From Candidatus Dojkabacteria bacterium (GTDB lineage: Bacteria; Patescibacteriota; Dojkabacteria; SC72; JAFGCJ01): a stretch of DNA of 56,146 bases. Shown one piece after another: positions 5,915-33,165 of this stretch. Position 1 is the first letter of the stretch. Each line of letters opens with the position of its first letter. Where the stretch lies: contig JAFGIK010000036.1 of the NCBI GenBank assembly GCA_016929645.1, positions 1 through 56,146 on the forward strand. The letters run 5' to 3'. The notes beneath the pieces were generated by a model. It had not been told where the DNA came from. It made no database searches and saw nothing but the letters and a program-made list of their open reading frames with translations. The position numbers and the translations under genes were made by a program.

Positions 5915-5973
5915 TGGGGCCGGAGGGAGATTTTTTGATACTCAAAAAATCTCCCTCCGGCCCCATCGTTTTT
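5915..5973 (+). terminator. intrinsic terminator / 24-bp perfect hairpin after rplL
   Basis: TGGGGCCGGAGGGAGATTTTTTGA-TAC-TCAAAAAATCTCCCTCCGGCCCCA followed by TCGTTTTT. Confidence 0.75.
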
Positions 5974-6148: not shown

Positions 6149-6820
6149 ATGCCTCAATTAACTCAATGGTTCTTAGATAGAGGTATATCAGAAGACATTC
6201 TCCTTATCATAAGCTTCATACCAATACTTGTAACAATGACATCAATCTCAAGGTATATTTTCGGTATAAAAACATTTGGTATATATTCTCCAATGGTACT
6301 AGCATTTTCCTTTTATTTTATGGGAGCAAGACAAGCCTTTATTTTTACATTTATTGTAATACTTGGAGCATGGTTAATTAGAGATCTTATTCGGAGGATG
6401 CAATTCCACTACATTTCCCGTATTGCAATTATTTACTGCGGTGTAAGCATTTTCATGCTCATTTCTATTACATTATCAACATTTATTTCAAGTAAAGACC
6501 CGTTTTTTAATTTTGGTCAACTTTCAATAATTCCAGCAATAATGATCATTTCAATTACAGATAGATTTGTTTCAAATTTTATTAAAAAAGGGCCAGATGC
6601 GGCGGTAAGATTAACATTAGAAACTCTTATAATTGCAATTCTTGGATGGGCATTAATGAGATTTGAACCGACCCGATATTTTGTTTTAAACAATCTATGG
6701 CTAATACCTGTAATGATTTTTGTAAATTATCTAACAGGCAACTATACAGGGATGCGTTGGACAGAATTTATTCGTTTTAATCAGGTAATAAAAAATGCTT
6801 CCGATAGTTCAAATGATTAA
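6149..6820 (+). CDS. 7TM integral membrane protein of the 'inactive transglutaminase 7TM' family (7TM domain only)
   Basis: About 7 hydrophobic helices; GIKTFGIYSP and GNYTGMRWTEFIRF motifs; overlaps the downstream glutamate-ligase-like gene as in known operons. Confidence 0.8.
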   Translation: MPQLTQWFLDRGISEDILLIISFIPILVTMTSISRYIFGIKTFGIYSPMVLAFSFYFMGARQAFIFTFIVILGAWLIRDLIRRMQFHYISRIAIIYCGVSIFMLISITLSTFISSKDPFFNFGQLSIIPAIMIISITDRFVSNFIKKGPDAAVRLTLETLIIAILGWALMRFEPTRYFVLNNLWLIPVMIFVNYLTGNYTGMRWTEFIRFNQVIKNASDSSND

Positions 6821-8330
6821 AAATAGCAGACAGACACTTGGACTTAACCATAGAAATGCGGTTTACATTAGGCCGTACAACAAGTCAAAATTCAAGAGAA
6901 TCGCAGATGATAAACTCTTGTGCAAAAAGATTCTTTCACGGAATAATATTCCGACATCTCAGATCTACAAAGTCATCCGAAACCATGACCAGCTAGACTC
7001 TATCAAATGGGAAGAACTGCCTAAAAGTTTTGCATTAAAACCTAATATCGGTACAGGTGGTAGTGGGATCATCGTTGTCTATGGTCGAGTCAAAAACAGT
7101 CTTGAATGGATAAGAACTGATGGATCAACATTAAATGTAAATGCTCTTAAAAATCATATAAGTAAAATTCTTGACGGACAATTTTCTATGGGAAACCGAA
7201 AAGATACAGCATTTATAGAAGAACGGGTCATCAATGATCCATTATTGAAGAAGTATTCATATAAAGGTGTTCCAGATATTAGAGTAATTGTCTTTAACAG
7301 GGTTCCCATTATGGCTGAGTTAAGACTGCCGACAGCAGAATCAAGAGGTGCTGCAAACCTTCACGCAGGTGGTATTGGTGTTGGTATCGATATTGCAACA
7401 GGTATAACTACAGTCGCAATCCACCGAATAAGTAATCTCTTAACTTGTTTCCCTGGAATGTCCGACATGTATGAGATTATTGAAAACACTCTTGACGAAA
7501 ATCAACTTCCGATTAGCGGTATTCAGATTCCTCATTGGAGAGAAATTCTAGAGATAGCAATCAAATGCCAAGATGTTTCAGGACTAAAATTCCTTGGTGC
7601 AGATATAGCATTAGATCGAGATAAAGGACCACTAGTCTTTGAGCTCAATGCACGATCAGGAATAGCAATTCAAACAGCAAATCTATCTGGGATGCGAGAC
7701 CGACTAGAAAGAATTAACGGGCTAAAGATAAAGGATGCCGAGCATGGAATACGAATCGCTAAAAACTTATTCGGAGGAGAAGTTGAGGATGAAATTAAAT
7801 CAATTTCAGGAAGGAATATTCTTGGGCTTATAGAGAAAGCAATATTCCAACCAGTACCTCCAACAGAAGTTCCTGTAGAAGAGGTGAAAAAACACAAAAA
7901 AAGAAACAGAAAGAAAAGGAGTGGTTTTACAACAATAAAAACAAAAGTTAGAATTAATACAGGTATAAGAACATCTAAAATTTCTCCGATCCTTGCTACT
8001 CGCCTGGGATTTAGGCCAGCTTTAGATTTTTTTAAAAATGAAGAAATACCGGATTCTTTTCAATCAAGAGATGACGCTCGGAAATATCTTGAATCTGTAA
8101 AAGAAAAATTAATAGGTCATACAAATATTGTTGATGTTGTAATAACTGTTGAGGATGACAAAATTTCAATACGACCTGTGATCGAAATAGAAATAGAGCT
8201 TGATGAGGAGAATATAAAAACCCAAATGATAATAAGTAACAGGAAGGATATGCCATACAGTGCAGAAATTGGTAGAAATGATCTCAAAAATTTTCTCATC
8301 GATACAAGTAAGACGTTCTCTTTACACTAA
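6795..8330 (+). CDS. alpha-L-glutamate ligase-like ATP-grasp protein fused to a C-terminal retropepsin (RimB-like) domain
   Basis: LGLNHRN, ADDKLLCK, KPNIGTGGSGI, GVPDIRVIV, ANLHAGGIGVGIDIATG, ELNARSG; C-terminal INTG...RPVI...IGRNDLKNFLID; alternative start 6813. Confidence 0.8.
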   Translation: MLPIVQMIKNSRQTLGLNHRNAVYIRPYNKSKFKRIADDKLLCKKILSRNNIPTSQIYKVIRNHDQLDSIKWEELPKSFALKPNIGTGGSGIIVVYGRVKNSLEWIRTDGSTLNVNALKNHISKILDGQFSMGNRKDTAFIEERVINDPLLKKYSYKGVPDIRVIVFNRVPIMAELRLPTAESRGAANLHAGGIGVGIDIATGITTVAIHRISNLLTCFPGMSDMYEIIENTLDENQLPISGIQIPHWREILEIAIKCQDVSGLKFLGADIALDRDKGPLVFELNARSGIAIQTANLSGMRDRLERINGLKIKDAEHGIRIAKNLFGGEVEDEIKSISGRNILGLIEKAIFQPVPPTEVPVEEVKKHKKRNRKKRSGFTTIKTKVRINTGIRTSKISPILATRLGFRPALDFFKNEEIPDSFQSRDDARKYLESVKEKLIGHTNIVDVVITVEDDKISIRPVIEIEIELDEENIKTQMIISNRKDMPYSAEIGRNDLKNFLIDTSKTFSLH

Positions 8331-8382
8331 TCAACATATTGATATTTAACCCGACAATATTTAGTTAACATATCTTACAAAA

Positions 8383-9378
8383 ATGCATAAATATACTCTC
8401 GAGGAATTTAGACAACAGGTCTGTAACTCACAAATGTCACTTTACATGAAAGCTGCACAAGATCTTGGTATTAAGAGCAAGATCTTAATAAAAGGTATTT
8501 TGGTAGAATTTGAAAAAGATAACAAAAAATGGAGAATTCATAAATCATTACTACCTATAAATGACTCTGTATCAATGATGCTATCAAGCTACAAATCTAC
8601 TTGTAACCAGTTTTTAGGGAAAAATAGTATCCCTGTTCCAATTCAGATAAGCACTGACAAATCTGAAGACATTCATAAATTTGTCGAACAAAATCATCTC
8701 GCTAAAATTGTCATAAAACCAATACGTGGATTTGGAGGATCCGGAATTACAATGCTTCCTCAAAAAAATCAGATAGATGGAGCATTCAACCTTGCTTATG
8801 AAAAAGCCCTGACAAATTTACGAAAAAGAGTGATTGCTGAAGAATTCATTTCTGGAGAAAATTACAGAATACTTGTATTAGGAGGCAAAGTAATTGCAGC
8901 CATACATAGAATTCCAGCGTTTGTTGTCGGTAATGGTAAATCAACGATTGAAGAACTAATAAAACAAAAAAACATTGAAAAAAGTAAGAATGATGCAATT
9001 GAAATTCCTGTTGATAACGAAACCCTACTCGCTCTCAAAGATCAAGATTTATCAATTGAGTCGGTTCCACAAAAACAAGAACGAATCAAACTTAGATTTA
9101 ATGCTAATTTTTGCACAGGAGGATCGACTAGAGAATGTCTAGCCGAAGTTCATGAAGAATACAAGAAAATTGCAATTGCAGCAACGAAACTTTTAGGTCT
9201 TAAGTTCTCAGGTATTGATTTGATAACCCCTGATATCTCAAATACCAATGTAAAATATGCAATTAATGAAGTTAATCATGACCCAGGGCTTCGAATACAT
9301 TATAATGTAGATGAAGGGGAAAAAACTGATATCGCAGTAATAGTTCAGAAATATATTCTTGAAAATTATAATAATTAA
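8383..9378 (+). CDS. stand-alone ATP-grasp ligase of cyanophycin synthetase G-domain / GshF type
   Basis: IKPIRGFGGSGI, EEFISGENYRILV, PAFVVGNGKSTIEELI, ANFCTGG, GIDLI, NEVNHDPGL. Confidence 0.75.
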   Translation: MHKYTLEEFRQQVCNSQMSLYMKAAQDLGIKSKILIKGILVEFEKDNKKWRIHKSLLPINDSVSMMLSSYKSTCNQFLGKNSIPVPIQISTDKSEDIHKFVEQNHLAKIVIKPIRGFGGSGITMLPQKNQIDGAFNLAYEKALTNLRKRVIAEEFISGENYRILVLGGKVIAAIHRIPAFVVGNGKSTIEELIKQKNIEKSKNDAIEIPVDNETLLALKDQDLSIESVPQKQERIKLRFNANFCTGGSTRECLAEVHEEYKKIAIAATKLLGLKFSGIDLITPDISNTNVKYAINEVNHDPGLRIHYNVDEGEKTDIAVIVQKYILENYNN

Positions 9379-9395
9379 ATTCTAATAATCCAAAG

Positions 9396-11078
9396 ATGAA
9401 AATAAAAGTTCTTCAAGGTTTAAATTTAATAAATCCGCACACAACAGTAATTGTCGAGATGGAAAAAGTAAGCGATGAACTTGTAAAAATGATAAAAGAA
9501 ATTCATCCAATATTCCTTATCGACTACAAAATACACACGGAGGCCAAGCTAGAAGTGCAAACACATATTCCAAACTTATGGAAGAATGAACAATTTCTAC
9601 AGCCAATAGAAGACTATGCAACAGGTAAAATCGATTATGAAAAAGCACGTCTTGAAATGCTTGAAGTCGCACGGTTACTTTTAGGTTCAATGTCTACAAT
9701 CCCTACCCTACATGCTGCGCACAAGAAAGGTTATGAAACTATCCAGTATTTTGTAAATGACAGTTCAATAGAAAAACTTTCTTTTAATAGGACTTATTCA
9801 ATAGGAATTGGCTTAGAGTCAGAGGTCATGACATCAGCATCATCTACAAGAGATGCTCATCTTGCCCAAAAAATACAGCGAGATAAATCAATAACCAATC
9901 AGGTCATAGAAAAGATGGGAATGCCAATTGCTAAATGGGCAATTGTAGACTCAAAAGAAAAATTAAAAGACCTAGGAGATAAAGTCGGCTACCCTCTTGT
10001 CATGAAACCAGTTGGCTTAACAGGTGGCCATGGTGTCCAAATCGGTATGAAAAATTCTCAAGAACTTGAGGAGGCTTGGGATAGAATACAAAGTTACTAT
10101 GAGAAAGATATGACACATCAAGAAAAAAAATCAGAATGGCAAAAAACAATAATCATTCAGCAAGTATTAAAAGGCTCAGATTACAGAATCCTTGTAGTTA
10201 ACGGAAAGTTCCAAATCGCAACACACAGGCTTCAGGCACAGGTTACAGGAGATGGCTCAAGTTCTATTGAAGAACTAATCAAAAAAGAAAATGAAAACCC
10301 AGCCCGTGATATTAACCTGCCAACTCACACACTCAAGCCAATTGTTATAGATAAAGATCTCATCAAAGTTTTAGAAAAACAAAACCTAAATATCAACTAC
10401 ATACCAAAGAAAGATGAAGTCGTAAGGGTCAGAGACGTTGCAAGTATGAGCCAAGGTGGAATTACAGCTGATGTAACAGACAAAATTCATCCTCAGATAA
10501 AATATATTTGCGAATCAATTGCACAGACTATTCATGCATTTGTTCTTGGAGTTGATGTACTAGCCCAGGACATCTCTAAACCACTCACAACAGACAATGG
10601 AGGAATTATTGAGATGAATACAATGCCTGAAATATATCTCAATACTCATCCAGTAATAGGGACTAAGAGAGAAGACTTTGGTGAACTGATTTTACAAAAT
10701 CTAATTAACCAGAATATCCATACAAATCGTGTAGTAGTATTAGGAGATATCTCTTATGAAAAGATCGAAAAGAACGTAACGGAACAACTGCCAGGTGCAA
10801 CAAAGATTGGAAGATTCTACAACAACACAATATACATCAATGGATTTGAAATCAATAGTAAATTATCGATACATACTGGTGTTTTATGTATGAAAAAGAA
10901 TAAATCCCTGGATACAATAGTCCTTCACTACCAAGATATTCAGGAGATAGAGGAAAATGGTCTAGGATTCGACAATATTGACCTTCTAATCTCAACGGAA
11001 GAGACTATCAATAAAGTTAAGGCAGATGTTCAAAAATACCTTGACGAAAAATTAATAAAACGAATGATTATAGTTTAG
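9396..11078 (+). CDS. cyanophycin synthetase-like ATP-grasp ligase with truncated, degenerate C-terminal Mur-like domain
   Basis: KPVGLTGGHGV, GSDYRILVVNG, VTGDGSSSIEELI, ASMSQGG..DVTDKIHP, GVDVLAQDISKPL, IEMNTMP; C-terminal GLGFDNIDL remnant without a GTNGKTT P-loop. Confidence 0.72.
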   Translation: MKIKVLQGLNLINPHTTVIVEMEKVSDELVKMIKEIHPIFLIDYKIHTEAKLEVQTHIPNLWKNEQFLQPIEDYATGKIDYEKARLEMLEVARLLLGSMSTIPTLHAAHKKGYETIQYFVNDSSIEKLSFNRTYSIGIGLESEVMTSASSTRDAHLAQKIQRDKSITNQVIEKMGMPIAKWAIVDSKEKLKDLGDKVGYPLVMKPVGLTGGHGVQIGMKNSQELEEAWDRIQSYYEKDMTHQEKKSEWQKTIIIQQVLKGSDYRILVVNGKFQIATHRLQAQVTGDGSSSIEELIKKENENPARDINLPTHTLKPIVIDKDLIKVLEKQNLNINYIPKKDEVVRVRDVASMSQGGITADVTDKIHPQIKYICESIAQTIHAFVLGVDVLAQDISKPLTTDNGGIIEMNTMPEIYLNTHPVIGTKREDFGELILQNLINQNIHTNRVVVLGDISYEKIEKNVTEQLPGATKIGRFYNNTIYINGFEINSKLSIHTGVLCMKKNKSLDTIVLHYQDIQEIEENGLGFDNIDLLISTEETINKVKADVQKYLDEKLIKRMIIV

Positions 11079-11122
11079 TAAAAGAATAAAGTTCAAGTTA
11101 TTTAAATTATAAGAAATTTATA

Positions 11123-12052
11123 ATGAAATTTTTGATCGTTGATAAGAGCAAGAGAGTTGGAGATCTTGATTCACAACACTACGCAGTACAACGTATTATT
11201 GACAGTCTTGGTAAAAAACAAATAGAACACGAATTCTGCCATTTTGATGAAATTTCAATATGTGTTGAAAATGGACAGTTAATGCTTAGAATCAAAGGAA
11301 AACCACTCACTGACTTTTCACACATAATAATGAGAGGACACAGAAGAGAGGAATTTCAGATAAAACAAGCTGTCGTGTTCTTCAGTGAAAAACATGGGAT
11401 CAAAGTACAAAACGCAGAATTCATTAAGTTAATGCCAAGCTACAACAAGCTATTTCAACAGGTATTTATGGCACAAAACGGAATTCCATATATTGATTCA
11501 GCATATGTACTCAACGGAATGTATCACGAAGAATCAGAAACACTTGACAGGTTAGAGTTTCCGCTAATTTACAAACATGTCTGGGGTGAATATCGCGTAG
11601 AAAAAATCGATGGAGAAGACAAACTGAAAAAAAATGTTTTTCTAGTAAACAACATCGATGAGTTAAAAAAACAATGTACTGATCGAAGCGATCCCCAGGA
11701 TTATTTTATTCAAAAATATGTCGATATAGGAGAAGATACAAGAGCAATGATGATTGATGGAAAATTTATTGGAGGTTGGAAAAGAGAAGCAAACGAAAGC
11801 TTTTTAACAGTCGGGGGAAAACCCAAGTACAGCCTTTTTAATAATCCAGATCAAGAATATCTCGAATTAGTTGAAAAAACAGCAAAACTATTCAAAGCTC
11901 AATACTGTGCACTAGATGTCATATACTACAAAGATAAACCTCACATTCTCGAGATTAATATGGACCCAGGATTTAAAGCATTTGAGACCAAAATTGAAGG
12001 AATGGAAATCGACATCGCAATGGCAATCGTTGATAACATGCTTGAGAAATAA
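11123..12052 (+). CDS. RimK/LysX-family ATP-grasp amino-acid ligase
   Basis: NKLFQ...GIPY, FPLIYK, IQKYV, DTRAMMI, ALDVI, ILEINMDPGF. Confidence 0.75.
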   Translation: MKFLIVDKSKRVGDLDSQHYAVQRIIDSLGKKQIEHEFCHFDEISICVENGQLMLRIKGKPLTDFSHIIMRGHRREEFQIKQAVVFFSEKHGIKVQNAEFIKLMPSYNKLFQQVFMAQNGIPYIDSAYVLNGMYHEESETLDRLEFPLIYKHVWGEYRVEKIDGEDKLKKNVFLVNNIDELKKQCTDRSDPQDYFIQKYVDIGEDTRAMMIDGKFIGGWKREANESFLTVGGKPKYSLFNNPDQEYLELVEKTAKLFKAQYCALDVIYYKDKPHILEINMDPGFKAFETKIEGMEIDIAMAIVDNMLEK

Positions 12053-12080
12053 GTAAGATTTACAAAAAACTGAAATTAAT

Positions 12081-13244
12081 CTATACCAATCCTGTTTCAG
12101 AGAATATCCTATCAACAAGATGTTGCGTTGGATATACCGAAGGTTTTGGAATAATACCCTCCTCTACTAAAGGAATCCAGGAATATGCAATTTTACCTGC
12201 ATACATATATTTATACCCATTCTCATCGCCAGAAAGCTTTCTTCGAATATTAAGAAAACCTCGGAAATATGACACATCTTTACAGTAGCAACCAGTAAGA
12301 GACGTATCTGACATTCCGCGTTTAACTCGATACGTTATCTCAAATGCTGATCGTCTAGCATAAATCGATCTAAGTGCATCAAAGATTTGCCTAAAAGATG
12401 AATACTGAGCCAAATATATTGCATATACAAATGCAGCCCTCTTCTTAATATCTATCGCTCTTAATAACCCAAACTTTTCCTCGTTATATGTTGCTAGACC
12501 TTCTTCATCATCAAGATAATCAGCAACAGTAGGCTTGCCAAAGGATTCTATACCTGTAGCAAAGCCGTTACTTGAACGAAGAACATGAGTTAGAATCTCA
12601 TGAACAATCGTCTTCCTTATCTTCTCAACGTTAGTATCAATATTCGGATCAAGCATAACTCTCTTTGTCTTTGCAACAGTACGGATACCAGAAGACACAA
12701 TAGCCTTTGATTTATCAACCTCCCAATCAGTCAGATCAAGAATCTCAAAAACTTTTTGAAAAACAACAACTAAATCATCATATCTAAGCTTTCGCTGTCT
12801 TAACTTTTTATCAGATTCTACAATATTTATGTCACCATAACGCCTTCGTAAAACTCTACAAGCTTTTCGAAACAATTTGTAAGATGGAAGTTTAAAACGC
12901 TCATAGGAAATCTTGACAAAACGCTCATCATCTCCGATCGATTCAAGCAGCTCGGATGTCTGTTTTTTACTTTCTACAATTTGAAGAATTATATTTGATA
13001 TCGCAGGATCTACATCACTAACAACCCGAAGATTATCAAGAATTTTAAGTTGCTCCATATTATCTTTTTCAGCTTTACGGTATTTAAAAACCGGGTTATA
13101 ATCATCTTCTTTAAAAAACTTAGCCCGCTCTTCTTCAAGATTTTCAGGAACAAGATACAAACTTAACGGAGTCGCGATATTTGATAGAATTTCGTTAACT
13201 TCTTCAAGAGTAAATTCTGTTTTATTTTTAGTGAAATTAAACAT
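12081..13244 (-). CDS. DUF1704 / MATCAP-type metallocarboxypeptidase
   Basis: YNPVFKY, HEILTH (HExxxH), EEGLATYNE, RVKRG, KDVSYFRG, YAGKI. Confidence 0.8.
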   Translation of the reverse strand: MFNFTKNKTEFTLEEVNEILSNIATPLSLYLVPENLEEERAKFFKEDDYNPVFKYRKAEKDNMEQLKILDNLRVVSDVDPAISNIILQIVESKKQTSELLESIGDDERFVKISYERFKLPSYKLFRKACRVLRRRYGDINIVESDKKLRQRKLRYDDLVVVFQKVFEILDLTDWEVDKSKAIVSSGIRTVAKTKRVMLDPNIDTNVEKIRKTIVHEILTHVLRSSNGFATGIESFGKPTVADYLDDEEGLATYNEEKFGLLRAIDIKKRAAFVYAIYLAQYSSFRQIFDALRSIYARRSAFEITYRVKRGMSDTSLTGCYCKDVSYFRGFLNIRRKLSGDENGYKYMYAGKIAYSWIPLVEEGIIPKPSVYPTQHLVDRIFSETGLV

Positions 13245-13258
13245 CTATAATTATTGGA

Positions 13259-14899
13259 TTATGTAATTTTATCTATTAACATATACATCGAAGATTCGAG
13301 AAAACCCGTCCAAACACGGAAAAATCTTTTTATATTAGCATTAAATCCTCCACCTTGCTTGCTAAAACCACGAAAAAACCACTCCAAGCCTAAATATCCT
13401 AAATTGACATCCACTTTGTTAGCCTCACCAGCAACAAAATCAAAAGTCCCACCAAGGCTAATACCAAGCCCACACTTTAATTGAGATCTATTTGCAAAAA
13501 GCCATTCTTCTCCGCCTTTTACACAAACAACAAGTATATCAGGATTTGCTTTATTTATTAACTTCAGAGCCTCGGAAGATGATTCTTCTGAACGCTTCCC
13601 AGGATAAACATCCTTGATTTTAAGACCAGGATACTCTTTGCTTAAGCGTTCAGAAGCAAGAATACCAGTATTTCCATGTCCGAAATCAAATCCTCCATAA
13701 AAGAACACAGAATACCCCCTTTTTAAGGCAAGTTCCATAAGTGGACGGATTAACTCAGACCCGGAAACTTTTGCACGCAAGACACTTCTAATCGCGTCAG
13801 GATAGAAAATTACAAGGATACCAGACAGGATAAAATGAAACACCCCCTCCACCAATCGTATCACAAAATTATTACTCAATTCTAAACTCCTCAAATATGC
13901 AGCCCACAAAACAAAAATACCATCGGACAATGATAAAACCCCATTATTCAGCGCATCTCTGAAATACCTGTCACGCTGGGCCTTCACAACATATTCAGAA
14001 TAAGGAGTAACAACATACGAAAATTCCCCAGAATTTATCAGCTTGTCCATCTTTCCGATTGCAGATTCCACTGTCTCATTATTGATTTGCACACCCAAGA
14101 CATCAACAACATCTACCCTCCTTCTTGATTTATCTTGAATATACAATTTGAACAAATCATTAATCTCAGACAATATTACTGAAATGCAAACACACAGAAT
14201 TGCAAAAGAAAAAAGTCCAAAATAAGGAATAATTGAAAATAAATACCCTAAAATAGCAATTAAAATTATACTTGAAAGAAAATTTATTAAATCTTGAAAT
14301 TTTTTAGCTTTGTGAAGCCAACGTATAAGAAAAATAGATAAAAATACAATACTAAGTGCCCAAAATATAGAGATAAACATAAATAATACTAGAAAAATAT
14401 AGCAGAGTACTATCGGAATTACTCTTAACAATCCAGATTCCATATTCCTTATAAAAACCAACTTAGAGAAAAATATATAAAAAAGAGCCATGGAACCAAC
14501 AAAAATTGACAAAAACAATCCATAATAAATATACGTAGAAACAATATTCCTTAAAATAGAAATTTCAATCATAGGAAGTTGCTGATTGAAATAGTAACCA
14601 ATACATAGCAAAATCAAACAGTAAATTGAGAAAATAAGTTTATTACTCCAAAGCTGAAACCCAAGGAATATAATTATGAAAAATATTAGCGAATATACCC
14701 AGACCCCAGAATTAATTATGTTAAATCCAAAAAAATTAAACAGAAACAAAATAAAAATGCTAAAACAGAACAACCCAACAATATAAATATTCTCAAGACC
14801 AGAAATATCAAACAGGCTTTGTTTCAAGGATGGGTCCTTTTCTTTAGTCAAAATTTTCAATGTTGCTTTATCTTTTCCAAAATTTTTAGATTTGGGCAT
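13259..14899 (-). CDS. WecB/TagA/CpsF glycosyltransferase fused to an N-terminal multi-TM domain
   Basis: About 8 TM helices in residues 30-250; VVTPYSE, LSDGI, VSGSEL, VFFYGG, LGGTFDFVAG, GLEWFFR. Confidence 0.8.
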   Translation of the reverse strand: MPKSKNFGKDKATLKILTKEKDPSLKQSLFDISGLENIYIVGLFCFSIFILFLFNFFGFNIINSGVWVYSLIFFIIIFLGFQLWSNKLIFSIYCLILLCIGYYFNQQLPMIEISILRNIVSTYIYYGLFLSIFVGSMALFYIFFSKLVFIRNMESGLLRVIPIVLCYIFLVLFMFISIFWALSIVFLSIFLIRWLHKAKKFQDLINFLSSIILIAILGYLFSIIPYFGLFSFAILCVCISVILSEINDLFKLYIQDKSRRRVDVVDVLGVQINNETVESAIGKMDKLINSGEFSYVVTPYSEYVVKAQRDRYFRDALNNGVLSLSDGIFVLWAAYLRSLELSNNFVIRLVEGVFHFILSGILVIFYPDAIRSVLRAKVSGSELIRPLMELALKRGYSVFFYGGFDFGHGNTGILASERLSKEYPGLKIKDVYPGKRSEESSSEALKLINKANPDILVVCVKGGEEWLFANRSQLKCGLGISLGGTFDFVAGEANKVDVNLGYLGLEWFFRGFSKQGGGFNANIKRFFRVWTGFLESSMYMLIDKIT

Positions 14900-14982: not shown

Positions 14983-15987
14983 TTACTCGCTATCTAAACT
15001 TTTTTGTAATATATCAAGATTCTTTAGAGCTTCTCCCGTACCTTTCACAACACAATACATAGGTTCCTCTGCTACGTGAGCAGGAACACCTGTCGCTTTT
15101 GTCAGCAATCGATCAATGTTTCGAAGCATCGCAGTACCTCCGCTAAGGACCATTCCTCGATTAATAACGTCAGAAGATAACTCTGGTGGTGTTTTTTCAA
15201 GAACATCCTTAACAGCCTTAATTATCTTGCTTAATGGATAATTCAAAGCTTCAACCGTTTCATTTGATGTTACTTCAACCGATCTTGGCATACCACTAGT
15301 ACTATCACGACCACGAACATCCATAGTCATAAAGTTATCAATAGGTAAAGCAGAACCAATTTTTAACTTAATTTCTTCTGCAGTTTGTTCACCAATCAAT
15401 AGTCCATGATGTTTCCTCATATAAGAAATAAGAGCATCATTCAATGCATCACCTGCAACACGTACTGAATTATATACAACCATACCATTAAGTGAGATAA
15501 CAGCAACTTCTGTCGTACCACCACCCATATTTACAATCATATTCCCAGACGAAGTATGAATAGGAAGCTTTGCTCCAATTGACGCTGCAAGGGGTTCAGG
15601 AATAAGCCAAACTCTTTTTGCTCCAGCAGAGAGAGCAGCTTTTCGTACAGCACGCTTCTCTACTGACGTAATACCAGCAGGAACACTTATCATTACATCA
15701 GGCTTAAATAAACGTGAATAGCCAATTGTTTTATTCAGGAAATATTTCAATAATGCTTCCGTTATGCGATAGCTGGCGATAACACCACTTCTCAACGGTC
15801 TTCTGGCAATGATATTGTCAGGAGTCTTTCCAATCATTGTCTTTGCTTCATTTCCAACAGCTACAACAGAATAATCATCCGTATTCAAGGCAACAACAGT
15901 TGGCTCTACAAGTACAACGCCCTGTGGTTCAAGGAAAACTATTGAATTTGCTGTGCCAAGGTCAATACCAATTCTTTTGTTAAACAT
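14983..15987 (-). CDS. mreB: rod shape-determining actin MreB
   Basis: IGIDLGTAN, RPLRSGVIA, GGGTTEVAVISL, GEQTAEEIK, LSGGTAML. Confidence 0.97.
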   Translation of the reverse strand: MFNKRIGIDLGTANSIVFLEPQGVVLVEPTVVALNTDDYSVVAVGNEAKTMIGKTPDNIIARRPLRSGVIASYRITEALLKYFLNKTIGYSRLFKPDVMISVPAGITSVEKRAVRKAALSAGAKRVWLIPEPLAASIGAKLPIHTSSGNMIVNMGGGTTEVAVISLNGMVVYNSVRVAGDALNDALISYMRKHHGLLIGEQTAEEIKLKIGSALPIDNFMTMDVRGRDSTSGMPRSVEVTSNETVEALNYPLSKIIKAVKDVLEKTPPELSSDVINRGMVLSGGTAMLRNIDRLLTKATGVPAHVAEEPMYCVVKGTGEALKNLDILQKSLDSE

Positions 15988-22465: not shown

Positions 22466-23473
22466 CTATTCTAAATAACTCTCCCTATTATCAACTTCAA
22501 TTGTTACAGAGCCATTATCTGCCGAAAGTGAAACCCTGCCACCAACCGGAAATGTGAACCTTGGTTCAGTATGACCAAAATCAAAGTCTACTACAACAGG
22601 CAAATTACTAAGCTCTTTTTTAGATCCAATGATCTCCATTAATTTATCAAAAGTAATCCCACTATTATTTTGAAATCTTCCAATCACCAATCCTCTCACA
22701 TTTTCAAACCAATCTTGATGAAATATTGACTGCAAAAATCTATCAAGCAAAAGAGCATTAGTACCACAGTCATCTTCCAAGAATAGAACAATATCATCAA
22801 ACACTCTTACATATTCCGTACCGGAAAGAAGACAAAACGTACTTATATTACCACCAATAATAAAGCCTTCGGCATCACCCTCATTTATCACAACTGGACC
22901 CTGATTCTTAACAGGATTCCGACTATCCTGATCAATCCACCATTCATCATCACTCCACTCCAAACTTGGCTCAACAATAAATCTATCTTTTGACATAACA
23001 CATTTTTGAAAATGATCAACAGTATAATCCACCTGAGATTTCTGTCCAAAAGTCGAATAATGCGGTCCATAAAAGGTTACCAGTCCTGTTTTAGCAAGAA
23101 TTGCATTACATAATATTGTAATATCGGAATACCCGCAAAATACCTTAGGATTCTCAGCAATAATCTCCCAGTCAATATATTTCAAAAGTTGATTTGAATT
23201 GAAACCACCAATAACAGTTAGTACTCCATTGATATTTTTATCTGAAAATGCCCAATGTAGGTCCTCAACCCTGCTTTCAATCGATGAAGACAGAAAATCA
23301 TCAGATTCCTCAACATTTTTTCCAAAAATTAGCTCCAATCCAAGATCGTCGAAACGCTGCTTGGCAATTTCTCTGGTCTGTGCAGAGATTATAGACATCG
23401 ACCTTGAAGGAGCAATTACCGCTATTTTATCGCCTTTTCCTAAAGGCTTTGGAAAAATTGGTTTCATATACAT
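22466..23473 (-). CDS. S66 family LD-carboxypeptidase / MccF-like serine peptidase
   Basis: IAVIAPS, GGFNSNQLL, GYSDIT (Ser), FLED (Glu), FGHT (His). Confidence 0.92.
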   Translation of the reverse strand: MYMKPIFPKPLGKGDKIAVIAPSRSMSIISAQTREIAKQRFDDLGLELIFGKNVEESDDFLSSSIESRVEDLHWAFSDKNINGVLTVIGGFNSNQLLKYIDWEIIAENPKVFCGYSDITILCNAILAKTGLVTFYGPHYSTFGQKSQVDYTVDHFQKCVMSKDRFIVEPSLEWSDDEWWIDQDSRNPVKNQGPVVINEGDAEGFIIGGNISTFCLLSGTEYVRVFDDIVLFLEDDCGTNALLLDRFLQSIFHQDWFENVRGLVIGRFQNNSGITFDKLMEIIGSKKELSNLPVVVDFDFGHTEPRFTFPVGGRVSLSADNGSVTIEVDNRESYLE

Positions 23474-23523: not shown

Positions 23524-24945
23524 ATGGAAAATAACGTTCAGAAAACAGAAATTAACGGACAAACAGAAAAAAAAGAATGCAACATACCAAAGCTATCAAG
23601 AAGACAATTCCTGCAACTCACCGGGGCTGCTGGACTTCTTTTGGCAGTACAAAACGGATTTGAAGCGTCAAAGATTTACAGCCAGCTAAAAGAGCAACTT
23701 GATAAAGATTATGAATACGCTAGACGATTCTCTACTCCTGAGGCATTTTTCAAAGAAAATCAAAGCTGGTTAAGTCAAATAGAGGTAGGCTGGAACTTCA
23801 GAGTCAGCCATATGCTTTACGTGTCAGCAAAAACTGGCATCCCATTTGGTAAAGGCCAAGGCATAATTCCAGAGGCGATCTTTGTTGCGGATGTAATAAA
23901 CGAAAAGTTAGCAATGACAAAAGGCAGACTAGGAATTCGCTTAAGCGAGGTGTTACCAACAGATGTAACTAAATGTAACCTTGATGATCCACAGCTAAAT
24001 ATGGACTTTTATCGCCCATGGCTTGATCAATTTCAGGCCTGCAACCAAAAGCTATATATAAGCCCAGGCATAAAGTCGCCTGGATGGCCGGAAATTCATA
24101 TCCCTAATGCATATATCAAAAAAATATATCAACAAGCAGGCATGGAAACCCCAAATAACAGTCACTTAATACACAAAGATGATCCATTAGCCAAATTCGC
24201 ACTCAAAGCGATGGCTCAGGTATACCAATATTTCCAAGAAAATTACCCGAACTTGATAGCCGGAATCGTCCCAGAAAACGAGCATAACAATAAATTTGGC
24301 CCTAATGGAAGACAATGGTTACTAGCAGACGATTATTTAATACTAGCTTCCCAACTAGCAAACCATTATTTTCCAGATGTTCCAATTATCATGAACTGTC
24401 CTGGAACTAGGAATACATTAAGAAAAACAATCAAGTCAATAAACATAGTTAGTGCAGCAGTACCAAAAATTCCATATTTTATTGCAGGAATCAACTCATA
24501 TCACATGCAGCCATATACCAGAGAATTTGGTGATAATTATCTTATGACAAGACTAAATGACCTTTTCTGGCTTGGTTTATTTATGGGAAAGCTAGAGCCA
24601 CAAATACAACAACTGGATAAAAGAGGCAATAAAGTTATTATCACAGAGGCTCAAGCAGAGCCATGGTATAACAATAACGACAAACACCCGGATATGTTCA
24701 AACCGGGAAACGATTTTCAATTCTTCTGCTTCTTTCTTATTAGAATGATGCGATACTGGTGCCAGGATCAGGAGATATCTGATTTTTCGTTGCCCAACTA
24801 TGTAAATGAAAGAGTTGAGATTTTACTTTGGGGCATTGAAGAGCTTACTCGTCATATGATGAGAGGCGAAAATGACAACTATACGATGGAGCATGAAAAA
24901 ATTATCAGACTAATAAATATGATTGGAGCTCAAAATTTGCGCTGA
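23524..24945 (+). CDS. putative clan GH-A glycoside hydrolase with twin-arginine-like signal
   Basis: SRRQFLQL + hydrophobic helix; GIKSPGWPEIHIP, ENEH (acid/base-like), ITEAQAEPW (nucleophile-like), LLWGIE. Confidence 0.6.
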   Translation: MENNVQKTEINGQTEKKECNIPKLSRRQFLQLTGAAGLLLAVQNGFEASKIYSQLKEQLDKDYEYARRFSTPEAFFKENQSWLSQIEVGWNFRVSHMLYVSAKTGIPFGKGQGIIPEAIFVADVINEKLAMTKGRLGIRLSEVLPTDVTKCNLDDPQLNMDFYRPWLDQFQACNQKLYISPGIKSPGWPEIHIPNAYIKKIYQQAGMETPNNSHLIHKDDPLAKFALKAMAQVYQYFQENYPNLIAGIVPENEHNNKFGPNGRQWLLADDYLILASQLANHYFPDVPIIMNCPGTRNTLRKTIKSINIVSAAVPKIPYFIAGINSYHMQPYTREFGDNYLMTRLNDLFWLGLFMGKLEPQIQQLDKRGNKVIITEAQAEPWYNNNDKHPDMFKPGNDFQFFCFFLIRMMRYWCQDQEISDFSLPNYVNERVEILLWGIEELTRHMMRGENDNYTMEHEKIIRLINMIGAQNLR

Positions 24946-24969
24946 GCTAGCTGAGCTAAACGCAAAAAA

Positions 24970-25821
24970 CTATTTCATTTCAATTAAAATTTCCTCATAA
25001 TATCTGACTTCCCAACTGTAAAGACCAGTATCAAGAAAGTCCTTTACGACGACATCTGGCGTTGATGAAACATCCTTGACTGTCGCATGCCCAAAATCAC
25101 TTGCATTATCACGAGATGGAAACATAATTGCCAGATTCATTGGCTTGCCGGCATAAGCATATACAAGAGCTCGAAAAATCGATTGTTCAAGACAATAACC
25201 AGCCTTTGACTCGGCCAGATCAGACAATTTTACAGGATCCTGTTCACTCGACTTTGCCATTTTTTCATCATAATTAAAATCTTCAATATTTAGTGCTGAG
25301 AAATTCTGTTTTGAAAAATCATACAATGCAGAAGAATCATCAACCATAGATGTTCCTTGCTCGATTAGTGAATTCAGATATGGGTCAGAAATATCCGCAA
25401 GGACATTCTGCTCATCCGAGAGAAACAAGATATCACCATTTGACGCAAAATTCACAACTACAGGTACAAAATCAGGATCCTGATTTTCCATAGCATTCAC
25501 TTGCCCATCGCTTACATCAATATCAAAGTTCTTGATTGTTATATCAAATGTATCGTTTGATAACTGACTCTCAAAACTTACATCTCGATCAGATCCAGTA
25601 TTTTTGTCATCTTCAGATTGACCATCGCCACTGTCCGACGATTCCGACACATCATCATCACCGGACTCATCAGAAGTATCATCTTTCTGTAATTCATCTT
25701 TTTTAACAGTTTTAATATTTGATAAAATTAAAATCACAAGAACTAAAGACACAATAATACAAGCGACAATACCCGTAGCACCCAAAAGGCCGCCAAAAAG
25801 GATTCTATTTTTCCGATTCAT
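24970..25821 (-). CDS. membrane-anchored transglutaminase-like / cysteine protease domain protein
   Basis: N-terminal TM, D/S-rich linker, GYCLEQS (Cys) ... GHA (His) ... FLD. Confidence 0.55.
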   Translation of the reverse strand: MNRKNRILFGGLLGATGIVACIIVSLVLVILILSNIKTVKKDELQKDDTSDESGDDDVSESSDSGDGQSEDDKNTGSDRDVSFESQLSNDTFDITIKNFDIDVSDGQVNAMENQDPDFVPVVVNFASNGDILFLSDEQNVLADISDPYLNSLIEQGTSMVDDSSALYDFSKQNFSALNIEDFNYDEKMAKSSEQDPVKLSDLAESKAGYCLEQSIFRALVYAYAGKPMNLAIMFPSRDNASDFGHATVKDVSSTPDVVVKDFLDTGLYSWEVRYYEEILIEMK

Positions 25822-25929
25822 GTTTTTTAAGAAGTTAAAAATAAGTGTTGATACTCAAATATTAACACTTATTGCTAAGGAAAATATACTATTGCGTTTT
25901 TCATCAGAAAATCAACGATGAGATGAAAG

Positions 25930-28900
25930 TTATCGACCTATGCCACCACGATTTTTTTCACGTTTTAATTCTTCATCAACAACATGGGGATCTACGTGAG
26001 ATACAAGGGTAAGTAATAAAAAAGGATATGAGAAAACTCTATTTTGCCACTTTACAATAGATTGTCTAACACCTTCCTGTACTCCATATTGTCCCCTAGC
26101 TTCAAAGGCATTATATACGCAGGCTCTATCATGTAGTTTTTCCAAAAACTTACGACCGAGAACTTTAGGGAACGCAGACACGGCTTTAGCTCTATTTGCA
26201 GCAGCTACAAGCAATTTCCTTATTGATTCCGTTCCTAAATATGCTTTGAAGTTCTTAAACAGACTAATTATTCCTTCTGCAATACCATCGACCATCCTTT
26301 TTCCAATTTCCTCTGACACTGATATTAACCACAAATCATGATCGGAGAAGACTGGTATATTTGAAGTACATGTCATTATATAGCCATCTTGTTCCTCTTT
26401 GAAAGCAAACAGTCCATTCAATGTAGGATATAATCCATTCAATGTAGGATCACCACGAAATCTGTTTGAAATTACATCGTATTGACCCTTTGTTATTGTT
26501 ATACTTCTATCTTTCTCATCCTTGCTTCCAGAAAACAGGACATTTATAGCATCGACATCCCCGCCAAGACACTGCGTTAAAACACCTTTATCATCATCCG
26601 TTATCAGAGTATAATTTCTTTGAGATTGCACCACGTTACAGAATTCAAAGTATTTTTCACCAAGCTTTTCCTTATCGCTTTCTGTTACTAAGACCGATTT
26701 TGTGTAATATGTAAGGTTAGCAAATATTTCAGGATTAATTTCACGTAAATCTTCAAGGCCAAGACCGGCAGCTCTTGCACCAGCAATATCTAGTATATAT
26801 ATCGTAGATTTAGGACTACCAAACAAAACATCAAAACGACGATTATCACTACCAATATTGAGCATCCTCATAACAGATTGCACCTGGTGAGGAGTCAACT
26901 TAAGTATCATGTTAACAACAAGATTTGCAAGAAAATCAGTAATAGGCTCAGACATTTCACCATCCACTGACTCTCCAGTAATTCTCTTACCACTCATATC
27001 TGATACAAGGGCTGTATCGTAAAGTTCTTCAATAGATTTTAGCAACTTTATCAATGAAGGAAGTTTAAGCATAGGTGTTTCACCAGAAGTAAGATCTGCA
27101 TTCAATTCTTGAACCAGGCCTTCATTATATATTGGTCCCAAAGATATCAGGCCTTCCCACATTGCAATCCCACATGCTCTTTCTAAAGCTTCCATAATCC
27201 CTTTTTCAGCAACACTCCCAGCAGCATCTTGATATAATGCGCATAATAATGAAGGAAACGTTCCCACAGGTCGATGCTCACCTTCCCTCCACTCCTGAAG
27301 GATTCCATCTATCTGCTCCTGAGTACACCAAGCGTTTAAAGCATCATGATCAAAAATACCTTCATATAAACTCAGAGGAAGCATCGCATATAAATCTGCA
27401 GATACACCGTCAGCCTTTTCTGTTGGACCCAAAGGCTTAAATCCGGTTGCTCTTTCAAGCAGTGTAACTCTTTCAGCTAAAAGTGGCATACGACTAGAAG
27501 TATCTCTCGCTTCAAGAACATCATCCCAGCGCGCAGTAAGTACTTCACCTGCCATAACTCTAAGTTTATGCTCCAATTGGGCATTTTCGACATCACGATC
27601 ATATCCGCTAATCACACTTGAAACCTTGGCAAGACGCAATAGCAGCTCCACTCGACTCCTAGCTACAGCAACAATGTTTGAGCCAGATTCACTATCTACT
27701 ACCTTGAGAAAATTATCAACAAGTGAAGAATCTCTTCCTCTTGGTTCAGGACTTACTGAACGACCCAACTTTGGACTTGTCCTGGCTAAATAATCAGCCT
27801 GTTCTATCATCTGACTTGCATCTTCTGAAGTAAATCTATCATTCCCATAATCCATTACGGTCACACCTGATAAAATCTTATCCAGAGCAAAGTCAACCCT
27901 GAAATATGATGAAAGTAACAACATATCAGATAAAGCAACCACCGCGTTATGCTGCTCACCTGTAATCTTACCTTCTTTTAGTCTTGATAACAGAATTTCA
28001 TAAAAATGATCTAAGCGCTCGACATCTGCATCATCCGTACTTATTAAATTGATAATATGCCTGGCACTTCCAAAATTTAATAGGGTCTGTGCAACATCAG
28101 GACATTGGGCTACGGGAAGCTCTTCAATATACCTTCGCCAATCTTCAATATCATGGAAATACGCTTCTGCACCACTTAAATGCTGGGTAGCCAAATCATT
28201 ATCTTTTCGTTTTCTATCTTCAAAATCGGCAACAGTTTCATGAATTGCACGGGAATCTAAAAGTATCTCAGGTAAAAGATTGGAATAACCGTTATTTACA
28301 ACATTATCTACTAAATTATAGGATTGACGGAAAGCTTTACCTTCAGAAGAAGGATAAACACAGCGTTCATAACATCCACGCAAATAGGCATATCCCGAAA
28401 AAGAAGAAGTATCACAAAGAGACACAATGCCAAGAGTATTTTCAATATTCGAAATAGTTTGTTCTGATCCTAATATACTGGAAATCAATACATTTAATTG
28501 TTCTGCATTTTGATAACCTGATGTCAGAATTTCAGCAATTCGCTGAGGCATATCTTTTCGTTTTGATCCTTTATGCCAGGATTTAAGAACCTCATAAACC
28601 AGCCTTGATTGAATGTTTTTAAGCTGAGTATCTGGACTGGAAAACGCCCGAAACATACCACAAAGATTTTGCTCAAAGCTAGAATGCAAATTTTTAGATA
28701 ACCTCCTGCCGGATCTATTATCATCCAATCCTTTTAGCTGGTCTTTTTCCAATTCAAGATAAAGACCTAAAAGCTTGGAATTCCTTGGATCTGAAGAAAA
28801 TTTCTCACTAAGTTGAGGTATATACTCTAATGGGAATTGATCCTTTTTGCTAGGGGTAAGAAACTTAAAATCGCGATTGAGATTTTCAATATAACGAGGA

Positions 28901-29019
28901 TTACTATAGACCGCAGCCAAATCATGACCCCAGGTTTTCTTATCAAAAACCAAATGATGCTCACCCGAGCCTTCGCAACCAGAAGTCCAATTATCTCTTG
29001 CGTATGATTTAACATCCAT
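25930..29019 (-). CDS. large hypothetical protein (1029 aa)
   Basis: Long uninterrupted ORF, helical-looking composition, no motif recognised. Confidence 0.8.
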   Translation of the reverse strand: MDVKSYARDNWTSGCEGSGEHHLVFDKKTWGHDLAAVYSNPRYIENLNRDFKFLTPSKKDQFPLEYIPQLSEKFSSDPRNSKLLGLYLELEKDQLKGLDDNRSGRRLSKNLHSSFEQNLCGMFRAFSSPDTQLKNIQSRLVYEVLKSWHKGSKRKDMPQRIAEILTSGYQNAEQLNVLISSILGSEQTISNIENTLGIVSLCDTSSFSGYAYLRGCYERCVYPSSEGKAFRQSYNLVDNVVNNGYSNLLPEILLDSRAIHETVADFEDRKRKDNDLATQHLSGAEAYFHDIEDWRRYIEELPVAQCPDVAQTLLNFGSARHIINLISTDDADVERLDHFYEILLSRLKEGKITGEQHNAVVALSDMLLLSSYFRVDFALDKILSGVTVMDYGNDRFTSEDASQMIEQADYLARTSPKLGRSVSPEPRGRDSSLVDNFLKVVDSESGSNIVAVARSRVELLLRLAKVSSVISGYDRDVENAQLEHKLRVMAGEVLTARWDDVLEARDTSSRMPLLAERVTLLERATGFKPLGPTEKADGVSADLYAMLPLSLYEGIFDHDALNAWCTQEQIDGILQEWREGEHRPVGTFPSLLCALYQDAAGSVAEKGIMEALERACGIAMWEGLISLGPIYNEGLVQELNADLTSGETPMLKLPSLIKLLKSIEELYDTALVSDMSGKRITGESVDGEMSEPITDFLANLVVNMILKLTPHQVQSVMRMLNIGSDNRRFDVLFGSPKSTIYILDIAGARAAGLGLEDLREINPEIFANLTYYTKSVLVTESDKEKLGEKYFEFCNVVQSQRNYTLITDDDKGVLTQCLGGDVDAINVLFSGSKDEKDRSITITKGQYDVISNRFRGDPTLNGLYPTLNGLFAFKEEQDGYIMTCTSNIPVFSDHDLWLISVSEEIGKRMVDGIAEGIISLFKNFKAYLGTESIRKLLVAAANRAKAVSAFPKVLGRKFLEKLHDRACVYNAFEARGQYGVQEGVRQSIVKWQNRVFSYPFLLLTLVSHVDPHVVDEELKREKNRGGIGR

Positions 29020-29144
29020 AGCTTAATATTTACGCCTTATCTATAAAATAATGGGCTAGATTTGCCGCCATTATATCATCAGTTATAGAGCCAAACAATA
29101 GCATAATAGTTTTCGATAATACTCAAAGAAATCTACCAAATTAC

Positions 29145-29627: not shown

Positions 29628-29676
29628 AATTATAAAAGAATTAGTTTAATTATAGGGCAAATATAAAAATTAAATA

Positions 29677-30132: not shown

Positions 30133-30229
30133 AGTGGATTATTAATTATAAGTTTATCATACAAGGAAAACTTTTGATATAATCTCAAATATTTAACATT
30201 AAGAGAATAAGCCGATTCAGATATATACC

Positions 30230-33147: not shown

Positions 33148-33165
33148 ATCGGGCTAGCCGGACTC
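33148..33165 (-). repeat. partial duplicate of the tRNA-Pro 3' end (att-like direct repeat)
   Basis: ATCGGGCTAGCCGGACTC matches ATCGGGGTAGCCGGACTC at 33320-33337 at 17/18 positions. Confidence 0.7.

Follow-up and report, generated by a model that had tools for sequence, protein, structure and literature searches.

A conserved block of four ATP-grasp ligases, a 7TM protein and a MATCAP-type peptidase in Dojkabacteria: a candidate Rlo-type amidoligase system

Contig JAFGIK010000036.1 of a Candidatus Dojkabacteria bacterium (assembly GCA_016929645.1; 56,146 nt, hereafter the window) carries a compact gene block at positions 6149-13244. It encodes a seven-transmembrane (7TM) protein, an RloC-type ATP-grasp ligase with a retropepsin-like domain (RloC), two ligases related to cyanophycin synthetase (Cph331 and Cph560), a divergent RimK-like ligase (RimK309) and, on the opposite strand, a gluzincin peptidase of the MATCAP family. 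The block is tentatively read, with slightly less than even confidence, as an enlarged version of the Rlo-type amidoligase systems that works wholly on the cytoplasmic side of the membrane and would write and trim an amide-linked chain for envelope, cell-shape or osmotic homeostasis. A single ligase-plus-peptidase pathway is the best reading because the genes are conserved in very small genomes, re-associated in other lineages and, in some of these, fused. The initial annotation of this DNA had already proposed a write-erase pathway with membrane coupling. This is still the most economical reading, as judged from the co-conservation, the re-association and the fusions of the ligase domain ATPgrasp_ST with MATCAP, and a predicted ligase-membrane protein complex adds to it. 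What is new here is the all-cytoplasmic layout, the fused retropepsin, the MATCAP partner and the additional ligases with distinct pockets.

The features of the locus are listed in Table 1. Five packed co-directional genes and a convergent HExxxH peptidase of the DUF1704 family had been described in the initial annotation; open reading frames are present at exactly these positions, and the family scans agree. The spacing between the five plus-strand genes is -26, 52, 17 and 44 nt, the 7TM and RloC genes sharing a 26-nt overlap, and a hairpin scan found no terminator-like site inside 6149-12052. The hairpin after rplL marks, on sequence grounds, the ligase genes as a putative transcription unit of their own, set apart from rplJ-rplL. 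A ribosomal target, suggested by these neighbors, was dropped in view of this strong hairpin, an S6 protein without an acidic tail and ordinary L12 tails. The source genome measures 1.59 Mb and is 94.7% complete; the names under which close homologues are recorded put the organism in Dojkabacteria/WS6, within Patescibacteria. All scores against curated equivalog models (CphA, RimK, QEGLA, RloB and TIGR02291) stay under the curated cut-offs.

Table 1. Features of the ligase block and its flanks in the window.
Feature	Position	Strand	Evidence
nusG-rplK-rplA-rplJ-rplL	5' of the block, up to the hairpin		family scans
Terminator-like hairpin after rplL	5917-5963	+	20-bp stem, 11 G-C pairs, T-rich tail
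7TM protein, 223 aa	6149-6820	+	PF14402 7TM_transglut, E 3.8e-17
RloC-type ATP-grasp ligase with retropepsin-like domain, 511 aa	6795-8330	+	PF14397 ATPgrasp_ST, E 1.7e-63; TIGR02291, E 1.6e-78
Cph331, stand-alone CphA-type G domain, 331 aa	8383-9378	+	TIGR02068, E 5.9e-60
Cph560, N, G and truncated M domains, 560 aa	9396-11078	+	TIGR02068, E 1.9e-69
RimK309, divergent RimK-like ligase, 309 aa	11123-12052	+	PF08443, E 1.5e-12
MATCAP/DUF1704 gluzincin peptidase, 387 aa	12081-13244	-	PF08014, E 1.3e-27
546-aa protein with C-terminal WecG/TagA-type glycosyltransferase domain, between mreB and MATCAP	13259-14899	-	
mreB, 5' of MATCAP on the same strand	14983-15987	-	

The block is a general feature of its order. 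Cph560 was found in 58 of 61 genomes, spanning five families, and the three genomes without it include ones of 68% and 80% completeness. Twenty of the 58 loci, from all five families of the order, were analyzed by comparing their open reading frames with the window proteins. The recurring order is rplA-rplJ-rplL > 7TM > RloC > Cph331 > Cph560 > RimK309 < MATCAP < mreB, an arrangement that is well beyond chance. RimK309 is present in all 20 loci, RloC and Cph331 in 19 each and the 7TM gene in 18; every absence of the last three coincides with a contig end. MATCAP adjoins the block in 16 loci. In the other four, the gene lies 13 kb off, 36 kb off, on another contig or past the contig end. Insertions of 1-3 kb occur in the Cph331/Cph560 gap (5 of 19 loci) and in the Cph560/RimK309 gap (four loci), and bring in a C45/AAT-family protein, a GT4 glycosyltransferase, an alpha/beta hydrolase, a class II tRNA synthetase or a TrmB regulator. 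In one genus, the gene between Cph331 and Cph560 encodes, on the same strand, a 325-aa protein of the C45/AAT family, of Ntn-hydrolase type (L018:7022-7999, L021:7016-7993 and L020:9193-10170; L numbers denote compared loci). It may be an extra amidase or acyltransferase of the pathway. A genome of the sister order (L044) contains all six families, in a slightly changed order.

Beyond the order, the families were surveyed in an even sample of 301 genomes of the phylum. ATPgrasp_ST occurs in 99 of the 301, whereas RloB is reported to be 96% proteobacterial (PMC12239564, in its accessible part). MATCAP is present in 59 and a Cph560 relative (E <= 1e-30) in 34. Outside the class, the Cph560 relatives consist of the G domain only, with ~330-400 aa and often in tandem; added to these are two long forms of ~860-890 aa (genomes G124 and G326). 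The long form of G326 (L039:960-3635) has 891 aa, resembles CphA1 and carries both the M and the C domain of Mur ligases; its neighbors in this Patescibacteria cluster are an RloC-like gene, a DUF3541 gene and two ligases that consist of the G domain only. By hand count among the 284 same-phylum genomes, which are related and not independent of each other, ATPgrasp_ST is found in 40 of 43 genomes with MATCAP and in 15 of 18 with a CphA-G-like protein, versus 82 of 284 overall.

Twelve loci from other families share a recurrent core, a 7TM module and an ATPgrasp_ST ligase. The 7TM protein of this core has ~500 aa, with an extracytoplasmic PKD or other domain added to the 7TM module, and the ligase is either fused to MATCAP (~800 aa) or carries a retropepsin (PF05618 in L040). 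Beside the core are zero to four CphA-G-like or RimK-like ligases, and some loci also have another MATCAP-like protein, an FGase-family member or a GNAT there. The flanks (YebC-RuvC, TyrRS, PBP1) are unlike those of the Dojkabacteria. The neighborhood conservation on which the earlier proposal depended is thus found both as order-wide co-conservation and as re-association of the same families elsewhere in Patescibacteria. A limited literature search returned no description of this Patescibacteria cluster, although the distribution figures of PMC12239564 may bear on whether the spread in Patescibacteria is new, and no account of a CphA2-type enzyme outside cyanobacteria or of a partnership between MATCAP and ATP-grasp ligases.

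This partnership extends further. In a library of 1.84 billion representatives, MATCAP has 1473 relatives at E <= 0.001, and ATPgrasp_ST lies N-terminal to MATCAP in 13 of the 17 long homologues scanned. In Proteobacteria, the gene order is FGase > MATCAP > GshB-like ligase on Sinorhizobium pSymB and on a Shinella plasmid, while a Photobacterium replicon has a GshB-like ligase followed by an FGase-MATCAP fusion. Such GshB-like, FGase and QEGLA (TIGR02421) clusters are similar to the Dojkabacteria block in that a MATCAP-family peptidase adjoins an ATP-grasp ligase, and an FGase-family gene is also present in the Patescibacteria locus L037. On the other hand, their ligase belongs to another subfamily and they have no 7TM partner. 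For Photobacterium damselae at low salinity, the available text of PMC10308900 gives an upregulation of 38-fold for 'GshB', 27-fold for its QEGLA neighbor and 52-fold for rimK.

The MATCAP protein of the window scores 97.2 bits with PF08014 (cut-off 27) and matches human MATCAP (7Z5G) at E 1e-12. Its zinc site consists of H215-E216-x3-H220 and E247-E248-G-L-A, in which H215, E216, H220 and E248 are invariant in 70 diverse homologues. With TIGR02421 (QEGLA), it reaches 109.2 bits for a cut-off of 338.65; all 70 homologues match this model, the best at E 1.5e-72. No signal peptide was seen by eye. The gene lies 3' of mreB on the same strand in all 16 loci that have both, with a gap of at most 91 nt in eight of them; the remaining loci have one intervening gene, often a glycosyltransferase. 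The glycosyltransferase gene of the window is not conserved at that place in other genomes. MreB was considered as a MATCAP target and dropped, as its extended C-termini are neither acidic nor conserved.

In eukaryotes, TTL/TTLL ATP-grasp ligases and the MATCAP carboxypeptidase together run the tubulin tyrosination cycle. The resemblance to this cycle (7Z5G/7Z6S) lies in a MATCAP-family gluzincin, with HExxxH and a further glutamate, which is partnered with ATP-grasp ligases and fused to one in other Patescibacteria. The differences are that no tubulin-like target is known here and that the place of TTL is taken by ligases of RloC, CphA and RimK type.

The 7TM protein scores 63 bits with PF14402 (cut-off 25), over profile positions 57-247 of 248. 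With the RloB model NF052267, only positions 314-507 of 508 match (52.5 bits, cut-off 900), as the inactive-transglutaminase ectodomain is missing and the first transmembrane segment begins after ~16 residues. Across 20 aligned orthologues, the mean identity is 47%; R35, Y36, H87, Y88 and D138 are invariant, and K41, K147, R203 and R209 nearly so. These residues lie in loops which, by their charges (positive-inside rule), would be cytoplasmic. This suggests an N-out/C-in topology with a hydrophilic cytoplasmic tail, which fits the external domains fused N-terminally to the 7TM module in other lineages. A search of the protein atlas gave no usable match for this protein. The tails are short, hydrophilic and acid-containing, with a terminal residue that is not conserved. 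In the sister-order locus (L044:3708-4394), the cytoplasmic tail ends in EEEEEEEREEE; in three loci with a MATCAP-fused ligase (L036, L042 and L043) the tails end in EE, and the other tails are basic or neutral at the end.

RloC scores 214.8 bits with PF14397 (cut-off 31.4) and 263.9 bits with TIGR02291 (cut-off 314.2). The AlphaFold2 model, with a predicted local distance difference test (pLDDT) of 83, consists of an ATP-grasp part (residues ~20-340), a disordered linker (358-377) and a beta-rich domain (378-511). Foldseek gave ArgX/LysX and RimK as the folds closest to the ligase domain. These enzymes act on protein C-termini. The beta-rich domain, which the initial annotation had left unplaced, is retropepsin-like: a profile built from 20 such C-terminal domains matches the PF05618-type PDB entries 9G59 (E 7e-7) and 9G58 (E 3.3e-6), with the D-T-G strand in register. 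PF05618 itself is matched at E <= 0.01 by 14 of the 20 orthologues, the window domain scoring 23.8 bits for a cut-off of 27. The D-T-G motif is present in 17 of 19 sequences and reads N-T-G in the window (N388-T-G, codons at 7956-7964) and in L015, which represents one related genus. The asparagine in place of the catalytic aspartate may reflect a recent loss of one 'eraser' activity. The initial annotation had likened the locus to a module of 7TM protein, ligase and retropepsin. All three parts have a counterpart here, but the retropepsin is a domain fused to the ligase, not a third gene, and carries N-T-G here.

A complex of RloC with the 7TM protein was predicted from our own alignments, with 20 rows for each partner. 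Over three runs, the interaction prediction score from aligned errors (ipSAE) was 0.63, whereas the highest of three controls scored 0.00; at least 94% of the contacts are shared between the runs, and the partner pLDDT is at least 79. In the calibration of the tool, 116 out of 157 solved complexes reached the mark, compared with 2 out of 215 mismatched pairs; with own alignments, these counts hold only roughly. The predicted interface joins RloC residues 6-23, 217-228 and 293-299 to the cytoplasmic loops and the tail (198-218) of the 7TM protein, and includes the conserved residues N18, G128, Q293 and G299 of RloC and Y36, K41, Y88, R203, R209 and F210 of its partner. RloC segments 6-16 and 216-222 are disordered in the ligase-only model. 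The modelled tail runs along the ligase beside its E-x-N loop. As RloC finds no solved structure by sequence at E <= 1, this result is unlikely to be the recall of a known complex. The prediction supports a docking of RloC on the cytoplasmic face of the 7TM protein.

Cph331 and Cph560 score 203 and 235 bits with TIGR02068 (CphA), for a cut-off of 850, and no Mur_ligase domain was detected in either at E <= 0.01 in the family scan. Cph331 comprises the core, lid and omega parts of the CphA G domain. The AlphaFold2 model of Cph560 (pLDDT 92.7) aligns over its whole chain with CphA2 of Gloeothece (7TA5; Foldseek TM-scores 0.73/0.70, E 1.1e-43, 595 columns), and also with CphA1 structures; by sequence, residues 148-538 align with 186-566 of CphA2. 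Its M domain is truncated and motif-less, so that the N-G-truncated-M layout is the architecture of cyanophycin synthetase 2 (CphA2; 7TA5, 8FXH/8FXI; PMC10273328, accessible portion).

The pockets of the two proteins can be compared with those of the solved synthetases. According to the available part of PMC10273328, StCphA2 binds beta-Asp-Arg/cyanophycin with D212, N393, R308, D362, R389 and S395. For the G domain of TeCphA1, the text at hand of PMC9427784 lists R323, N394 and R458 for the incoming aspartate and R309, E215 and H267 for the polymer. Both Cph proteins keep the residues for ATP, Mg and the acceptor carboxylate. In TeCphA1 numbering, R309, R323, N394 and G456 are retained in all 20 Cph331 sequences, and R458 in 19 of them; position 215 is never acidic, and the P-loop His267 is replaced by Gly in all 20. 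Cph560 retains the catalytic residues of ATP-grasp enzymes, with an altered substrate pocket: positions 394, 456 and 458 are S, E and Y (S350, E412 and Y414) in 21 of 21 sequences. As in CphA2, the equivalents of R308, D362, R389 and S395 are kept (R264, D319, R346 and S352), and an aromatic residue replaces R458 of CphA1. Unlike in CphA2, the equivalent of D212 (TeCphA1 E215) is K159, variable between K, M and E; S350 takes the place of N393, and the counterpart of G456 is an invariant glutamate. On alignment, Cph560 is without the Arg- and Asp-binding residues of cyanophycin synthetases. It further differs from CphA2 in its non-cyanobacterial host, in the pairing with a G-domain-only paralogue and in that no CphA1 or cyanophycinase partner was found in the genome. 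The other Patescibacteria copies vary at positions 456 and 458, and the tandem copies, therefore, look like different specificities.

Neither Cph protein agrees with the cyanophycin-synthetase chemistry invoked in the initial annotation, and no cyanophycinase (Peptidase_S51, PF03575) was found in the genome, within its completeness. The same applies to the poly-alpha-Glu chemistry of RimK. RimK309 scores 79.4 bits with TIGR00768, under the cut-off of 143.4, has no match to NF007764 and finds its best solved RimK only at E 0.0016; it does keep the Mg-binding D..E-x-N. The S6 protein of this genome ends in ...KKVIDI, without the Glu acceptor. Of all the readings, a true cyanophycin store and S6 glutamylation fit the tests least well. 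The catalytic Lys/Lys/Arg and Asp/Glu-x-Asn residues show no variation in any of the four ligases. LdmS was considered as a relative of Cph331 and dropped, the available text of PMC9486568 drawing no link between them.

The module of 7TM protein, ATP-grasp ligase and retropepsin was reportedly first predicted by Iyer and colleagues in 2009, in a comparative genomics study on amidoligases. A form of it that has been studied genetically is the RloABC system of Pseudomonas aeruginosa (mBio 2025). There, according to the portion of PMC12239564 at hand, the deletion of rloB or rloC suppresses the hypo-osmotic (low-salt) lethality of a triple rloA protease mutant; the phenotypes of the rlo mutants also concern cell shape, ampicillin and biofilms, and RloA, whose substrate channel is positively charged, cleaves the substrates of RimB. 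As in RloABC, a 7TM_transglut protein is followed here by a ligase of the ATPgrasp_ST/TIGR02291 type, with a retropepsin-like domain, similar to PF05618, in the locus. In contrast, the ectodomain of RloB has no counterpart, the retropepsin is fused to a cytoplasmic ligase instead of being secreted as stand-alone RloA, with N-T-G in this genome, and three more ligases and the MATCAP peptidase are added. RimK-RimB (RimABK) also pairs an ATP-grasp ligase with a cytoplasmic retropepsin that undoes the addition of the ligase, and RimK is among the folds closest to RloC. However, the ligases of the block are under the RimK cut-offs, S6 offers no Glu acceptor and a membrane partner is present.

In the expanded Rlo-type system proposed here, the 7TM protein would anchor, and probably control, RloC at the inner face of the membrane. 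RloC and the three other ATP-grasp ligases, with their different pockets, would extend one amide-linked amino-acid chain, each with a building block of its own. For Cph331, this is predicted to be aspartate or something close to it, joined to a terminal carboxylate, and for Cph560, with its CphA2 architecture, a bulkier unit joined to an oligomeric acceptor; RimK309 would likewise contribute a building block. Trimming or recycling would be the task of the two hydrolases, the ligase-fused retropepsin domain and the MATCAP-type carboxypeptidase. The product is presumed to be a hetero-oligomer or polymer, probably rich in Asp/Glu, made on or passed to a membrane-proximal acceptor. Candidates for this acceptor are a free peptide, a lipid-linked precursor of the envelope and a protein tail; the closest folds of RloC and the modelled tail contacts hint at a protein. 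The RloABC genetics fits a product that needs trimming and bears on the envelope, since a mutant lacking the proteases survives in low-salt medium once the 7TM protein or the ligase is gone as well. By analogy to Pseudomonas, we think that the role of the system is in the envelope, in cell shape or in osmotic balance. Among the uses named in the initial annotation (storage, osmoprotection or surface modification), storage has nothing specific in its favor.

Several points weigh against this proposal. The block is known from its genes, and not from a product, an activity or transcripts. MATCAP is on the opposite strand and looks co-transcribed with mreB rather than with the ligases, and in three of the 20 genomes compared, leaving aside the contig-end case, it is at least 13 kb distant or on another contig. 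The retropepsin domain of the window, with Asn for Asp, may be inactive, which would leave this organism short of one 'eraser'. The docking amounts to model confidence on 20-row alignments, and an acidic product is argued by analogy, from RimK, RloA and the Asp-binding residues of Cph331. Slow rearrangement could account for part of the order-wide synteny. Finally, there are glycosyltransferases in or beside the clusters, so the acceptor could be a sugar polymer and not a peptide.

This last point leads to the envelope itself as the substrate, a possibility that we consider unlikely but worth keeping in mind. The ligases would then put amino acids or a short peptide on the carboxylate of a lipid-linked sugar or muropeptide intermediate, as a decoration of an envelope glycopolymer or peptidoglycan precursor; the 7TM protein would present the intermediate at the inner face and the peptidases would edit it. 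The difference with the proposed system is in the acceptor. A WecG-type glycosyltransferase is present in the window, GT2 in L016 and GT4 in L018, L037, L039 and L041, although family and position vary by lineage. The adjacency of mreB (16 of 16 loci), PBP1 next to the clusters of L034 and L035 and, at that of L045, a YkuD L,D-transpeptidase point the same way, but such wall genes are also common core genes. The synthesis of teichuronopeptide requires the ATP-grasp protein TupA, and PF14397 is named 'sugar-transfer associated' in Pfam. In Shewanella, the loss of a 7TM/inactive-transglutaminase gene leads to more vesicle release, as stated in the available part of PMC12096838, and the Pseudomonas rlo phenotypes cited above (PMC12239564) also count in its favor. 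Yet none of the four ligases reaches the cut-off for Ddl, Mur or other wall ligases, and the conserved polar residues of the 7TM protein cluster, in our reading, at the cytoplasmic docking face and not along a path through the membrane. Alternatively, the products would be small molecules, di- or tripeptides serving as osmolyte, thiol or storage dipeptide (for example, analogues of N-acetylglutaminylglutamine or glutathione), recycled by the peptidases, with neither polymer nor tag. Cph331 matches the ATP-grasp halves of GshAB (E 3.1e-50) and of N-acetylglutaminylglutamine synthetase (E 1.9e-40) nearly as well as CphA, L037 has a GNAT gene after its CphA-G-like gene, the MATCAP genes of Proteobacteria are paired with GshB-like ligases and show a salinity response (PMC10308900, in part), and dipeptide operons of ligase and carboxypeptidase exist, such as LdmS-HmrA (accessible text of PMC9486568). 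The scores, however, are far under the curated cut-offs of the GshAB and N-acetylglutaminylglutamine synthetase families, Cph560 retains the N domain of a polymerase and a vestigial M domain, the closest folds of RloC act on protein tails, and four ligases, an endopeptidase-type retropepsin and a membrane partner exceed the needs of a dipeptide. Small peptides are, for these reasons, quite improbable as the product.

A true cyanophycin-like store made by the two Cph genes is very improbable. The rest of the block would then be unrelated (an Rlo module, a ribosomal-protein ligase and an mreB-linked peptidase), in synteny without a shared function. Public annotations do name the 560-aa protein cyanophycin synthetase, the best solved relatives of Cph560 are CphA2 and CphA1, and MATCAP, on the other strand, looks co-transcribed with mreB. 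But in both Cph proteins the place of the Arg-binding acid (StCphA2 D212, TeCphA1 E215) holds K, M or a variable residue, all Cph560 sequences aligned have Ser for N393/N394, and His267 is Gly; a Mur-ligase M domain for the addition of arginine is missing, and so, as far as this genome is covered, is Peptidase_S51. S6 has no Glu tail, and the families re-associate and fuse in other lineages. A more specific version of the protein acceptor is a bacterial 'tail code', which we regard as a long shot. The chain would be written on the C-terminus of a protein, in the simplest case on the cytoplasmic tail of the 7TM protein itself: MATCAP trimming would expose an acidic residue, the four ligases would write a mixed extension, the retropepsin would erase it, and the state of the tail would tune the output of the membrane protein. 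Hints in this direction are the C-terminus-modifying enzymes among the closest folds of RloC, the modelled position of tail 198-218 beside the E-x-N loop and the acid-containing tails. The lack of conservation of the terminal residue of the 7TM protein counts against it. If true, the eukaryotic TTL/MATCAP tubulin cycle would have its prokaryotic counterpart, and possibly its source, in the ATPgrasp_ST-MATCAP fusions of other Patescibacteria.

The Rlo locus bears on osmotic survival, antibiotic tolerance, biofilm formation and cell shape in Pseudomonas, and the block offers separately assayable enzymes together with a predicted membrane-ligase complex. Its extra ligases have readable pockets, and peptidases are fused to, or placed beside, the same Rlo core. 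This core is kept in about one third of the sampled Patescibacteria despite extreme genome reduction, which argues for an important function in the envelope or in homeostasis, in a group that offers hardly any access to experiments. The CphA2 architecture is seen here outside cyanobacteria, with a different pocket. In bacteria, peptidases of the MATCAP family regularly accompany ATP-grasp ligases, a finding with a bearing on how the tubulin tyrosination cycle arose.

Some other features of the window may be mentioned. About 9 kb off the cluster, an LD-carboxypeptidase (Peptidase_S66; 22466-23473, minus strand) is another peptide-trimming wall enzyme nearby. It is followed at 23524-33914 by eight consecutive open reading frames, one of 1029 aa, without a Pfam match at E <= 1e-6. 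The parts of ComEC (DUF4131, Competence and Lactamase_B) are distributed over three consecutive open reading frames (37328-39788, minus strand), representing a split gene or frameshifts, and adjoin a ComEA-like HHH protein at 39779-40477. An arginyl-tRNA synthetase of 877 aa (34035-36668, minus strand) carries an N-terminal B3/4 domain of the PheRS beta kind, which is an unusual fusion.

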